Source: Octopus vulgaris (Eukaryota). Taken from it: a stretch of DNA of 64,000 bases. This document shows, one piece after another, positions 17,994 through 58,478 of this stretch. The DNA lies in NCBI GenBank assembly GCA_951406725.2, contig OX597814.1:195610001-195674000 (forward strand), read 5' to 3'. Position 1 is the stretch's first letter. Every line of letters begins with the position of its first letter. The notes beneath the pieces are model-generated. The model worked only from the letters and a program-made list of their open reading frames with translations. It did no database searches and was not told the origin of the DNA. The position numbers and the translations under genes are program-made.

Positions 17994-18447
17994 TGTTATC
18001 TCCGAATCAATATTGCAATACATTTGCTTTCTCGATATGTATTTACATTAAATATGATACAGAGATGGCTATTTAATTATAATATTGCTTTTGTTTTATA
18101 TAACAGATTCTTATGCATCCGGGCGGCTAATTGTAAAACCAAGGATTCTTTAGTTACTGTTTTTCTATATCTGTAACAACGGATTTCGACTTAGAATGCG
18201 GTTGGCAGTGATTACATGCTACTGACAGATCCCAACCAGGCGGAAATACCTATCTAGCAATCTCACTGGCTGTTGGACGACCTTCATCTCTTAGCGATAT
18301 ATGTTGTCGTTTTAGACACAGCACGTCCATAAGAGATGTTATCTCCGGACGAATCCTGCAGCAAATTTGTCTTTTCACTACGTATTTGCATTAAGTATGA
18401 TGCACATATGACTATTTAAAAGTCATACTGCTTCTGTTGTACACCGT
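17994..18447 (+). mobile_element. Old retrozyme-like element (~343-nt unit plus diverged terminal direct repeat) with degenerate hammerhead
   Basis: Diverged direct repeat beginning TGTTATCTCCG at 17994 and 18337. At 18217-18259: TGCTA-CTGACAGA...GAAA-TACCTA-TC-TAGCA, with a 5-bp stem I. Confidence 0.45.
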
Positions 18448-18663
18448 CGATATATATATTTATATTCATTATTCTTAAACAAGAATATTATAGATAGTGA
18501 CTTCGAAGTTTTGGCCAGTTAAGCCATCGTCGTATCTATCTATCTATCTATCTATCTATCTATCTATCTATCTATCTGTCTGTCTGTCTGTCTGTCTGTC
18601 TGTCTGTCTGTCTGTCTGTCTGTCTGTCTGTCTGTCTTTCTGTCTGTGTATCTATCTATCTAT

Positions 18664-19707
18664 GATCTTGGGGCGAATCTGGACGTCGACGAGGAATACC
18701 TGACCTGCCTGTTCGGGACGACTTTCGGGCCAGAGCCCATAGACAACTTCCAGAGATCCCTGGCCTGGCAGTGCTACCGAGAAGCGCTACCCGTTCGGGA
18801 TAACCTCTACAGACACGGCACGAGAAACACGGGGCCGACCTGCCCGAGATGCGGTCAGAGCGACGAAAACGTTCTGCACGCACTCGTGCAGTGTCCAACA
18901 ATTTCCGACCTGTGGGCTTATGTCGAACAACTGCTGTCACGTGTGGGACGAGTCGGTTTATCAGCTGAGTCTATCGTCAATATTTATCACGCCTCCTTCC
19001 TTCAAACGGGAAGGAAGAGCTATTTTCATCATCCTTGTGGCTATGGCGAAAGAATGTGTCTGGTGGACGCGTCTGAAAGGATTGGAGACAAACACTTTCC
19101 TCTCTGGTCAATCTCTCATCAACTTCTTCAAGTACCACTTGAAAAGGAAAGTGAGAGTAGAGAAGCAAGTTTTGTCTAGCGAATGTTTTAAAAAAAGATG
19201 GGTGAATGTAGCAATGATGGCACGTATGATTGACGAAGCCACCTTGAGCGTAATCCTATGAACCCAGAAAATGAAAACAGTGGGTTACCCACTTGCAAAC
19301 AAATGTGGTAATATATAACAATATTGACCGAGGTTACCGTGGTCTTTTTCGTAGGCTTTTCTTCCCACGGATAAACCTTATCTGCTTCCCCCTTTACACC
19401 GTACATCATGACACTGTGATACACGATCCCTATTGATCGTTTTTTTTTTCCTCTTCCCCTTTCTTCCTCTCTTTTTTTCTCTTTTCCTTTTTATTTTCTT
19501 TTGTTTCCTTTCCTTTTTTCCTTTTTTTCTTTCTTCTCTTTTTTTTCTTTTTTCCCTTTTACGATCCCTTTTGATCGAAAACCTACGCCACTTTTTTTGT
19601 TTCTTTTGTTTTTTGTTTTTTTTTGTTTTTTTCATCCCCCAAAAGAAAAGCTCTACCTGGTAATTTGTCCCATTTGTGTGCAGCCCTGTGTTGCCAATAA
19701 AGAAACT
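18664..19707 (+). mobile_element. 5'-truncated L1/Tx1-clade LINE (ORF2 C-terminal zinc knuckle plus 3' UTR)
   Basis: ALPVRDNLYRHG...CPRCGQSDENVLHALVQCP...W is the L1/Tx1 C-terminal CCHC region. It frameshifts into ORF 18920-19261, then a pyrimidine-rich UTR ending AATAAAGAAA. Flanked on both sides by (TCTA)n. Confidence 0.8.
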
Positions 19708-19826
19708 TATCTATCCATCATCTATCTATCTATCTATCTATCTATCTATCTATCTATCTATCTATCTATCTATCTATCTATCTATCTATCTATCTATCTA
19801 TCTGTCTGCCTTTATAGATACACATA

Positions 19827-20211
19827 TCTCTCTCTATATAAACGGCAGTTTGTCTGTGCGTGTTTCTGTGTGTCTGTTTTCTCGTACCCTCACTCTGACC
19901 ACGGCTTTCAACCGATTCTGATGAAACTTGACACACACATAGCCCAATGTCATAATTCAAAACTAACGCAGCGAAAATTTTGAAAAGTTCCCCCAGTTCT
20001 GAAAAAAATCGATAAATTCGACATGGGGTCGAGAATGAGAAACCCAAACCACAGACCGTCTAGGGGACGCAACTCCACCTGTTTTAACTCTCAAAAAAAA
20101 TTTACCATCATTTTTTTTCCATTTTTTTGCTATTTTTTGGCTATAACTCTCTAAAAATGCTTTATAGTTATTTCCCTTACAAACCTGAGCAACGCCGGGC
20201 GATACTGCTAG
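19827..20211 (+). mobile_element. Non-autonomous Helitron
   Basis: 5' TC, subterminal hairpin CCTGAGCAACGCCGGG and 3' CTAG; inserted between A and T with no TSD. Confidence 0.75.
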
Positions 20212-55977: not shown

Positions 55978-56013
55978 CCGTACCGGTTTCAATCATTGAG
56001 ACTTTTTCAACTG
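55978..56013 (-). ncRNA. Minimal hammerhead (U3-A8 core), inverted copy
   Basis: Reverse complement of 56128-56163 with two substitutions. Confidence 0.6.
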
Positions 56014-56127
56014 TAAGTATGGGAAACAATTAAATTTTGAAAAAATTAAAAAAAGCTTACTATGCAAATATTATTTTAAAAATCTTTTCTTTTATATTTT
56101 CCCAAAATTAATCGTTTTCCATAGTTA

Positions 56128-56163
56128 CAGTTGAAAAAGTCTCAATGACTGAAACCGGTACTG
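56128..56163 (+). ncRNA. Minimal hammerhead (U3-A8 core)
   Basis: CAG-TTGAAAA-AGTC(TCAAT)GACT-GAAA-CCGG-TA-CTG, within the foldback ~55945-56195. Confidence 0.7.
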
Positions 56164-56269
56164 AAATGTTTTTTATAAAATTACTTTAGCATTTTTTTAT
56201 TTTGACGTTTTCCCATATATATATATATATATATATATATATATACACATACACACATACATACACGCT

Positions 56270-58478
56270 GAGAAGCTTCTTGAGGGACTTTTTTAATCTT
56301 GACATCATCTTCGACATTAATTCTAGGGTGGTAAACTTTTTGGATGTTACCTTGTGTCTATTATCTCTATTATCCCTTTCGTAAGCCTAATAAATCAATA
56401 TCATATATTAATGTATCATCCAATCACCTAAAATCCACAATAGACAGTATCGTTACGGCGATTTCAACTAGAATATCTAACTTATCTGCGAATGAAAAGA
56501 TTTTTGAACAGCATGCACCGGTGTATAATAATGCCCTAAGATTAAGTGGTTTCAAATCTAAAATATTTTATATCCTTAATACTAGACTCAAAATCAAAAT
56601 GGCTGGTTTGTCATTTAAGCACGTCACAAATACTATGAATAAACGAAGGGAACCCCCCAACTGCAATAATAGGAGGCCCTTGGGTAGTAATGTGTTTAGG
56701 GATACTCCCAATAGGTACAGGTATAAGAAAATTAATAATTTTGACAAGGAGTTAAACAAAACGGGAGGTTCACGGTCTGGAATAAGAGAAGTTGTTTGGT
56801 TCGCTCCCCCTTTCTCCCTTAGAGTAAGGAACTTACCAAAAATGTTTTTTAGAATTCTGAAGTAGAACTTCCCAAAGAATCATAAATACTATAGCATTTG
56901 CAACAAATCAGCGATCAAGTTCCCTTACTCTGTAATGCCAAACTTTGCCTCGATTATTGCATCAATCAATAGAAGCAAGCTTGCTGGGCGGAATAGCTGG
57001 AAAAGTTCTTTTGTGGATGACCAAGGAACTGCGTATAATAATTTTGTAACGCCTAATGCCAATGGTACAAACAGTCTGCCTTTACCGGATCTATCGAACC
57101 CATGTAATAAGGGAAGATTTGATGGAATGAAAGAGGGAAACTTGTCTAGAACTGGAGACACAAAATGTAAAGGTAACAATAGAAATAAAACTAGGAAAGG
57201 CCCCCGGAAAGAAATGTAATTGTAGAAACCCCGAATTATGCCCTTTAGATGGTTCCTGTCTAGTTACTAACGTTATATATAAATGTGTAGTCAAGGACGA
57301 GGATAGGTTAAATAAATTTTATATAGGTAGCACAGTAGATTTTAAGGCTAGATATAGATCACATATGAGCTCATTTTCTATCGATAAATACTGTAATTCT
57401 ACAACACTTGCATCCCATATACACAATTTAAAGAAAAATAATAAGAATTATTATCTAGAATGGTCCATTATCTCTAAAACCCCAAATTTCAAGGGAAATA
57501 TTAACAGGTGTAAGCTGTGCATAAGGGAATCCCTTACCATCCTTAGGTGTTATGGACCGCACATTTTGTATAAATTTACTGATGTGATTCCCTTTTGCAT
57601 CCATAAATTTTCTTCTACATTTTTAAAAGTGTATAGAAATAAAATAAGTCGTAGAAAATAAATAGTTTAGCTCTTATAGGGTTTGAAACCACGGAGGTTC
57701 AATTTAATTTAATTTAATTTAATACACCCATTTTTTTTTTACTGCTTTAATTCTTTCTTCTGGGCTCGTCTGAGCATGACTGCTTCAATAAGAAAACACA
57801 CAATATTGTGTTAAGCCTGCTAGGCGATGATGTCTGTCTCTCTATTTTTTCCCCTGACAAAGGAGTTATTAGCATGATGCACCCTAGTGCTTTAAACGCA
57901 ATAATATACCCCCGAAATGGCCATAGGGAATTTAGTAAATATGGTTTCCTCTTTTTTAACTATAAGGCCTCTCTTATTCGATGAGTAATTTTATATGACT
58001 TTCTAAACGATGAACCTTTATTTTATTTTATATTATATATTATATATTTTTATTTGCTTCCTATATTTATATATTTTTATATATTTTTATATACCTATAT
58101 ATTTATATATTACTTTATACTATATTCTTACGTTTTACCTTCTAAGTGTTGTAATGGTTTAAAAAAAAAAAATATATATTTTTCTTAATCGCTAAAGTAT
58201 TAACTTTTAACCGTGATGAACTGTATTCACATATATTCAAACATTTTTTCTCGCACTTTCTTATATGCTTGTACAGATGAATTATATTCCATCTTCCGTG
58301 ATGTCTAAATGTATATTCTATGATTAAATGTTCGAGTTATGAAATGTTATTGGATGATCTTGCATTTGCTTGTTCTATAACTTTAGTTTGATATATTTGT
58401 CTCATTCAATTGAGCACTTCTATAGCAGTCCTATTAAACATTTTGTTCCTGATAAGAAACAATCATTGTATTATTAAT
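56270..58478 (+). mobile_element. Decayed 5'-truncated Penelope-like element (Naiad/Hydra-type motifs)
   Basis: VNFLDVTL, PFRKPNKSISYINVSSNH, VVWFAPPFS, CNCRNPELCPLDGSCLVTNVIYKC, FYIGST, CKLCIRE and CIH, with stops and frameshifts. Ends at (TA)n. Confidence 0.85.
57849..57930 (+). ncRNA. Hammerhead motif in the PLE pLTR (G8 mutated)
   Basis: TTCCC-CTGACAA-[long stem II]-GAAA-TGGCCA-TA-GGGAA. Confidence 0.65.

Follow-up and report, generated by a model that had tools for sequence, protein, structure and literature searches.

Type I hammerhead ribozymes have been described in two kinds of animal retroelement. In the passages available, metazoan retrozymes of the non-LTR kind (LTR, long terminal repeat) are presented as non-coding head-to-tail units of a few hundred nucleotides (nt), 350-390 bp in mussel, that bear a type I hammerhead, occur as monomers to multimers and have Penelope-like elements as their proposed mobilising partner (PMC7229834; bioRxiv 10.64898/2026.07.22.740005). 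The mollusc of PMC7229834 is the mussel, the preprint treats 35 species and no mollusc, and cephalopods do not figure in those passages. The second kind comprises minimal hammerheads in the pseudo-long terminal repeats (pLTRs) of Penelope-like elements, which parts of the literature count in thousands, mostly single, and attribute to truncated elements (PMC4209133; Lunse et al. 2017 via PMC6765202). The window analysed here, 64,000 nt of Octopus vulgaris DNA (GenBank assembly GCA_951406725.2, contig OX597814.1, positions 195,610,001 to 195,674,000), had been marked in a preliminary description as holding about ten unrelated, non-autonomous hammerhead families at (TA)n tracts, moved by Penelope-like elements. 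Both kinds of hammerhead element are already in print, and the majority of the present motifs belong to common truncated tails like those of the pLTR literature. Our reading is that the window carries seven families of coding Penelope-like tails and five retrozyme families, the latter likely copied by Penelope-type enzymes, to which we give a probability of roughly 0.8.

The motifs themselves are real. All 16 positions listed for the window hold hammerhead-derived sequence, each on the expected strand. They represent 12 repeat families, each with a type I hammerhead, but only 13 insertion events, since in three cases (31840/33077, 35748/37823 and 55978/56128) one insertion contributes a motif on each of its two arms. 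Our type I descriptor reads, in order, stem I, the core, stem II (one additional base being optional), GAAA, a short stem III and UH; it permits C3-G8 or U3-A8, and calls were counted when stem III was palindromic and the score at least 22. Eight of the 16 motifs pass it (27081, 28198, 28743, 33077, 37822, 45368, 56124 and 57849), seven are family hammerheads in a decayed state (18217, 25059, 25715, 31840, 35748, 51155 and 55978), and 24936 is the 3' half of one; two extra partial motifs lie at 25265 and 25315. A ninth call at 57637-57714 (+), with a non-palindromic stem III and a score of 18, is probably due to chance. Against the 8 observed, 200 local dinucleotide shuffles of the window averaged 0.065 calls and never gave more than 1. 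A first, stricter descriptor, which had neither the extra base after A9 nor the U3-A8 pair, found 2 motifs only, and the window shuffle test is partly circular because the descriptor was loosened after the motifs had been seen. An independent test on 60 unselected, evenly chosen 10-kb genome stretches (600 kb) gave 35 calls versus a mean of 1.05 in 20 shuffles, with 7 of the 35 belonging to one array and a few low scorers probably arising by chance. A (TA)5+ tract lies within 400 nt downstream in 24 of these 35 calls, compared with 2573 of 11685 control positions. At 125/Mb, the density of the window is only about twice the sampled average of 58/Mb (0.6-Mb sample). No Rfam hammerhead model figures among the 150 best of 211 window matches (lowest listed 27 bits); the Rfam matches over the window, which is rich in TA, CA and trinucleotide repeats, are microsatellite noise.

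To sort the families, we searched the genome (2.80 Gb, 227 contigs) with 10 of the 12, scoring 40 of the 310-2896 candidates obtained for each and keeping 30 loci per family (20 for F1 and F2). F2 was searched twice, F12 was traced by its endonuclease, and F7 was assigned from the window copy alone. Some loci, numbered with an L below, overlap: counts of direct copies, motifs and shared upstream sequence include duplicates, and those of end mapping, within-insertion divergence and TA adjacency drop 12, 12 and 19 duplicate ids. On this basis, 11 of the 16 motifs, in seven families (F2, F3, F6, F7, F8, F11 and F12), are 5'-truncated 3' tails of coding Penelope-like elements, and the other five motifs, in five families (F1, F4, F5, F9 and F10), sit in non-coding head-to-tail units. 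The full motif was found in 30/30 loci of F5, 28/30 of F10 and of F6, 25/30 of F3, 22/30 of F11, 21/30 of F9, 16/20 of F2, 14/30 of F8, 10/30 of F4 and 1/20 of F1, and the variants U3-A8, C4 and U6 of the core CUGANGA occur among families.

The coding origin of the seven families is seen most fully in F2 and F12, where reverse transcriptase (RT) and endonuclease were both found; in F3, F6, F7, F8 and F11 it is the endonuclease with the region preceding it. F2 in the window (24724-24966, - strand) is the 3' end of a Hydra-type element cut off inside its hammerhead (3' half at 24936), and in the 9.7-kb locus L481 of the same family RT, GIY-YIG endonuclease, a 1.5-kb 3' untranslated region and hammerhead follow each other in order on one strand. 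This family had been taken for a fixed-start non-autonomous monomer, with no shared upstream sequence in the first 20 loci; the idea was rejected when a second search gave two longer copies and L481 proved coding. F12 (56266-58476, +) is a truncated Hydra-type coding element with RT pieces, a GIY-YIG frame at 57131-57661 with a CxCX5C linker, and a hammerhead at 57849-57930 whose G8A change is private to the window copy, other copies keeping C3-G8. F6 (28535-28899, -; hammerhead 28743-28823) is a Hydra-type tail that shares upstream sequence in 12/30 loci, and in 5/30 (L067, L069, L071, L074, L083) a GIY-YIG frame precedes the hammerhead with no TA tract between them. F7 (31661-33260, -) is a truncated Neptune-type coding element with its frame at 32027-32971, a CX4CxxC linker seen directly in the translation, a tail hammerhead at 31840, and an inverted arm at 32961-33260 with the hammerhead at 33077-33116; the core is UUGAAAA. 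F3 is present as two Neptune-type tails, one at 24970-25127 (-) with a decayed hammerhead at 25059 and 84% identity to the family reference, the other at 27015-27217 (+) with a hammerhead at 27081-27118 and core CUGUYGA; a same-strand GIY-YIG frame lies upstream in 4/30 family loci (L123, L128, L134 and L141, of which L123 and L141 are duplicates). F11 (55923-56219) consists of back-to-back Neptune-type tails, 55923-56054 (-) and 56058-56219 (+), with hammerheads at 55978 and 56124-56167 and core UUGAAAA, and has the same-strand GIY-YIG upstream in 5/30 loci (L187, L197, L200, L205, L208). Across the F3 loci (L121-L150), core position 6 is U in most called copies (CUGUYGA), and one listed form has C there. 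Three families are stacked within 1.2 kb (24724-25950) between two TA tracts: the F2 tail, the first F3 tail and a two-armed F4 insert.

Some of these assignments lean on motif reading. Clade labels (Neptune, Hydra, Penelope/Poseidon) come from linker motifs as in PMC8557442, and the Pfam GIY-YIG match was below the cut-off for three of the five pieces and absent for two (F3, recognised by tblastn, and F8, by motif reading). Upstream frame hits in L098 and L114 (F9), L271 (F2), L130, L138 and L143 (F3) and L193 (F11), and a Hydra-type hit in L165, were discarded as neighbours or artefacts. The same genome contains an open Hydra-type frame of 806 aa (G000:C5:50458460); Hydra-type frames with long Asn/Ser-rich inserts between RT and endonuclease were observed at L067:2343-3350 (-) and in L361. 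The proposal that some ten families are independent and non-autonomous, and that the window has no more than two coding elements, draws on the fact that most window inserts are short and non-coding, and on F8, whose 5' ends pile up at a tRNA-like head in 9 of 29 other loci, a pattern by which certain short tails might be mobilised in trans. Copies of F2, F3, F6, F8 and F11 are nevertheless continuous with a GIY-YIG or RT frame, and we give that proposal very little credence. Five of the claimed families survive as non-autonomous; F2, F3, F6, F7, F8, F11 and F12 do not. The preliminary description named solo pLTRs of coding elements as the case that would speak against it, and this is what most motifs turn out to be. 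They resemble the motifs described in parts of PMC4209133 in having many families per genome, a palindromic stem III, an extra base after A9 and a U3-A8 form of the core, and in forming pairs on opposite strands at distances of 100-700 bp; they differ in taxon, in the long stem II arms and 6-nt palindromes of the Hydra-type tails, and in the family-wide U6 of F3.

The five remaining families have another architecture. F5 (27883-28490, +) is a young 588-nt unit present as 1.02 units between (TA)n tracts, with a hammerhead at 28198-28289 (core CCGAUGA, stem III CGUACG); its period is 587-593 nt, a direct copy was found in 29/30 loci, and copies drawn from 2071 candidates are 98-99% identical. 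F10 (50980-51469, -; hammerhead 51155-51225), with a unit of about 400 nt present 1.2 times, also lies between (TA)n tracts and shows direct copies in 15/30 loci, 13 of them at 397-404 nt. F9 (45201-45695, -) has a 352-nt unit, a main arm at 45201-45510 (hammerhead 45368-45412) and an inverted arm at 45514-45695 with the longer end; 15/30 loci carry a direct copy, 13 of these 15 at 348-354 nt, and a 5-unit array lies on contig C25. The F4 insert (25241-25950, +; unit about 485 nt) combines a plus arm at 25284-25950, which carries the partial motif at 25315 and the decayed one at 25715, with a short inverted arm at 25241-25293; direct copies occur in 10/30 loci, mostly at 448-490 nt, and an inverted copy in 14/30. 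F1 (17989-18441, +) is an old unit of about 343 nt, 1.3 units long, with a decayed hammerhead from 18217, direct copies at about 340-350 nt in 13/20 loci and about 70% identity; the core and stems are still visible across copies in its alignment. A few tandem-family loci show other offsets than the main period. At least two consecutive motifs per locus were shown for F5, F9 and F10, and F5, F9 and one F10 subfamily are fixed for the core CCGAUGA, in which position 4 is C (28198, 45368; L010-L017). The longest ATG frames in the five families reach 37-58 aa (58 in F5), and candidates number 310-2488 per family over many contigs. By the design of their sequence, F1, F4, F5, F9 and F10 are non-LTR retrozymes as these have been defined, with dispersed head-to-tail units of about 150-1000 nt that each bear a type I hammerhead. 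F5 is covered, in three cases over its full length, by contigs of four runs, three of which we guess to be RNA and the fourth of which is of unrecorded type; they include its head-to-tail joint, but the joint is also present in DNA, and these contigs were not used as evidence.

It could be argued that the tandem families, like all the others, are pLTRs of coding elements whose master copy went unsampled, the tandems arising when the enzyme jumps time and again to one and the same 3' end of a template. This account does hold for seven of the 12 families, F2 misled our first test of it, and 40 candidates were scored out of as many as 2896 (at least 310). Jumps after random truncation would give variable junctions, however, and the periods are constant (587-593, 397-404 and 348-354 nt); arms reach at least four units, and no 5' end lies in shared foreign sequence. 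Shared foreign sequence upstream was seen in 0/30 loci of F10, F5 and F4 and 0/20 of F1, and the 3/30 of F9 are one overlapping locus; the 5' ends of tandem units meet a microsatellite, an arm in inverted orientation or flanking sequence that is not shared. We consider an unsampled master for all families improbable.

The link between the tandem units and Penelope-type enzymes comes from the anatomy of the insertions, whose ends we measured from the predicted cleavage site in three of the five tandem families (39 insertions of F5, 40 of F10 and 39 of F9). In all three, 3' ends are fixed and 5' ends are scattered. The F10 3' end falls at +182 in 36/41 arms, and the 3' ends of F5 and F9 form two clusters each, at +196-209 and +292-310 in F5 and at +165-175 and +212-225 in F9. 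Back-to-back two-armed insertions number 24 in F5 and 16 in F9, from which 6 and 2 were set aside for an end outside the clusters; a long end is paired with a short one in 16/18 and 13/14 of the rest, and two long ends were never paired (P about 0.0005 for F5 and about 0.0009 for F9 if arms were independent). An inverted arm with an extension at one end is also found in the coding tails F2, F6 and F8 and in the window copy of F7, and the inverted arm is rare in F3 (1/30). Features described for the Neptune, Hydra and Penelope/Poseidon clades in PMC8557442 (Craig et al. 2021) recur here: a C-terminal GIY-YIG domain, a CX2-5CxxC (F7) or CxCX5C (F12) linker, (TA)n targets, an inverted 5'-truncated arm and an extension at one end only, which measures about 30-150 nt here versus 30-40 there. 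The proposed Penelope-type retrozyme system stands in this narrower form: five non-coding tandem families, two of them with the two-armed Penelope footprint, beside a majority of motifs that are coding tails.

Targeting tells a similar story. A 3' end within 20 nt of (TA)4+, for which the background is 1089/18000 (6%), was found in 22/23 insertions of F5, 29/29 of F10, 13/26 of F9, 14/25 of F4 and 1/20 of F1; four coding-tail families gave 20/20, 24/29, 28/30 and 26/30, and the linker-less F8 1/29. The claimed adjacency to (TA)n can be kept for six families (24/29 or more), applies to half of F9 and F4, and fails in F1 and F8. An F8 with no linker and no TA targeting is what the model in the available parts of PMC8557442 predicts, and the pattern as a whole fits a linker zinc finger directing TA targeting. 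For F5 and F10, the TA preference suggests Neptune- or Hydra-type enzymes. Young non-coding units such as F5 share both the two-armed footprint and the TA preference with coding Neptune- and Hydra-type tails, which argues against purely local tandem amplification. In such a satellite-like scenario, a solo pLTR would be amplified in place by unequal crossing-over with little retrotransposition, a route that the preprint discusses, in the passages available, for the birth of tandems (bioRxiv 10.64898/2026.07.22.740005). Units are indeed alike within an array, and in F10 they diverge by 0.9% within an insertion versus 4.1% between insertions. The inserts, however, are 1-5 units long and spread over at least 20 contigs; their 3' ends are fixed while their 5' ends vary, they are flanked by TA and they have inverted arms, and we regard amplification in place as very improbable.

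Conservation of the ribozyme was addressed in alignments of 29/30 F10 and 22/30 F4 loci, picked by homology and restricted to loci in which stem III could be recognised as an anchor, a choice that favours conservation in that stem. Pairing cells amount to 87-88%, versus 23-46% with slid partners, and compensatory pairs are present in stem II of F10 (UA in 11 rows, CG in 9) and in stem I of F4 (CG in 13, UA in 8). In these two of the 12 families, the cell and score measures exceed 500/500 shuffles and all slid controls and the pair-count measure does not; with few inherited events behind the pairs, support for selection on ribozyme structure in F10 and F4 is modest. As to cutting in vivo, 5' ends coincide with the predicted cleavage site in 3/41 F10 ends (at most 2 nt away; P about 0.016, computed post hoc), in 1/63 F5 ends (exactly) and in none of F9; in a 15-nt window near the site we count 5/63 in F5, 4/41 in F10 and 2/57 in F9, versus 1.6, 1.5 and 2.4 expected. 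Two apparent exact cases, in L035 and L450, were artefacts. We take these ends as a weak hint of possible cleavage. Folding of 11 motifs as monomers (z from +0.7 to -3.3, active fold rare) is uninformative for motifs of the dimer type; according to the available parts of PMC4209133, a palindromic stem III implies cleavage as a dimer, often weak.

These observations can be assembled into a mechanism. A tandem unit would be transcribed as a multimer, two hammerheads would pair through their palindromic stem III and then cut, and the monomer would probably be ligated into a circle; in the passages available of PMC7229834, a tRNA ligase closed retrozyme monomers of mussel and axolotl into circles in vitro. 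Next, (TA)n would be nicked by a GIY-YIG endonuclease of Neptune or Hydra type, and the RT would prime at two set sites downstream of the hammerhead, one for each target strand, and would copy past the unit junction before at some point leaving the template. Short coding tails would be produced by these same enzymes from their own RNA, most copies dying as short 3' fragments. That circular hammerhead RNAs are copied round from two set sites, and that a Penelope/Poseidon family sheds in addition a SINE-like (short interspersed element-like) RNA from a tRNA-like polymerase III promoter, mobilised by its parent enzyme, is a tentative proposal, with the odds somewhat against the whole of it.

One step in particular has a serious competitor. 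Penelope enzymes might copy an uncut linear multimer, the hammerhead seldom cutting and no circle being formed. Minimal Penelope hammerheads cut poorly in vitro (PMC4209133), eight of nine frog dimers stayed uncut (bioRxiv 10.64898/2026.07.22.740005), both as far as the available passages go, and most arms here read through an intact cleavage site. The few 5' ends on the cleavage site, and cores and stems kept across subfamilies, speak weakly against it. We consider the linear template the less likely of the two; it accounts for the DNA nearly as well, and genomic DNA cannot separate circle from multimer. Copying by Penelope-type enzymes is the part of our reading that both templates share. 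The published retrozymes, in the parts of those papers available, were shown to cleave, and in PMC7229834 also to form circles, whereas for the present units cleavage and circles are predictions from sequence.

Several points weigh against copying of retrozymes by Penelope-type enzymes and against a conserved ribozyme in them. Among 70 Hydra-type tails, to which the survey of possible partners was confined, none had a hammerhead-bearing part that matched a tandem unit; long-armed hammerheads with 6-nt palindromes are common to Hydra-type tails and F4, F5 and F10. F2 seemed non-coding in 20 loci, which shows that small samples can overlook a coding master. Arm anatomy was mapped for three of the five units, and one of these, F10, has an inverted arm in 0/40 insertions. 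F1 is not linked to TA, and F9 and F4 are in about half of cases. Homogeneity within insertions is weak in F5 (0.4-0.6% vs 0.8%) and F9 (2.4-3.1% vs 3.5%). Finally, the pair-count measure does not exceed shuffles (364/500 and 282/500), and the covariation comes down to one or two pair positions, with few events inherited by subfamilies.

F8 deserves separate treatment. Its long arm in the window (- strand) is split in two: the 3' part (35666-35893) carries (AAT)n and the tail, with a hammerhead from 35748, and the 5' part (37662-37776) a tRNA-like head with A- and B-box-like words, by what we take to be the consensus of these boxes. A non-LTR fragment with Pfam RVT_1 and zf-RVT matches (35894-37659, -), presumably R4/Dong-like, is nested in the (AAT)n between them; the same non-LTR 3' end was observed before (AAT)n in locus L161. 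The short inverted arm (37769-37921, +) has its head partly deleted and a hammerhead at 37822-37867. The tRNA-like head lies upstream of the tail in 19/30 loci and comes directly after a GIY-YIG-like C-terminus in 4/30 (L155, L165, L172, L176), in a linker-less frame, to a piece of which Pfam gave no match. A first tblastn, with Neptune- and Hydra-type queries only, had overlooked this frame. Read by its motifs, F8 is the tail of a Penelope/Poseidon-type element, and a free tRNA-derived SINE, which we had entertained, was dropped since in those four loci the head belongs to the coding element's own tail. Both window arms and 9 of 29 other loci have their 5' ends at the head, and four loci run into coding sequence. 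ARAGORN made no tRNA call in the window, and Rfam gave no tRNA match on L177. The F8 tail may, through its tRNA-like head, shed a polymerase III RNA besides serving the coding element. The Schistosoma Sm-alpha and Sj-alpha SINE-like elements, in the passages of PMC6765202 available, likewise have a polymerase III-type promoter beside a hammerhead; unlike them, F8 physically forms the tail of a coding Penelope/Poseidon-type element, and its insertions consist of back-to-back arms instead of tandem multimers (tandem copies in 1/30 loci). For octopus, PMC4824008 cites three tRNA-derived SINEs from 1994.

Other repeats share the window. An abundant repeat of 184-190 bp forms head-to-tail arrays of 2-4.6 units in both orientations (2183-2597, 8709-9124, 10985-11337, 15430-16327 and 20749-21175), and a short back-to-back pair at 5786/5809; this layout recalls Penelope-type inserts, but our descriptor called no hammerhead in the repeat. 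An uninterrupted 983-aa endonuclease and RT frame (46514-49465, -; Pfam Exo_endo_phos and RVT_1), which we take to be CR1-like, has long TA tracts on both sides and a decayed relative at 30251-30667. A DDE_3 transposase fragment lies at 43648-44103 (-), and two overlapping frames at 18523-19261 (+), which show a CxxC...H...C pattern and of which the one compared with Pfam had no match, are probably the end of a non-LTR element. Outside the window, the unselected sample contained an array with two arms, built of 353-359-nt units and carrying seven intact hammerheads of identical sequence (L281:2272-4548), of a family absent from the window; further hammerhead families that the window lacks were seen in L293, L304, L307, L318, L323, L324, L335, L339 and L486, several with core UUGACAA.

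In the literature searched, from which repeat databases were left aside, we found no description of a cephalopod retrozyme and no Penelope-borne SINE; for the giant squid, 235 matches to hammerheads are mentioned but, in the part available, not analysed (PMC6962438). The sampled density of 58/Mb (0.6-Mb sample) suggests on the order of 10^5 hammerhead motifs in the octopus genome, a kind of motif absent from the window's listed Rfam matches. Mobilisation of animal retrozymes by Penelope-like elements has been proposed since 2020, and the retrozyme papers, in their available passages, argue for it from co-occurrence and pLTR homology; the insertions described here carry in addition a two-armed footprint with one long end, and this footprint makes the proposal testable.

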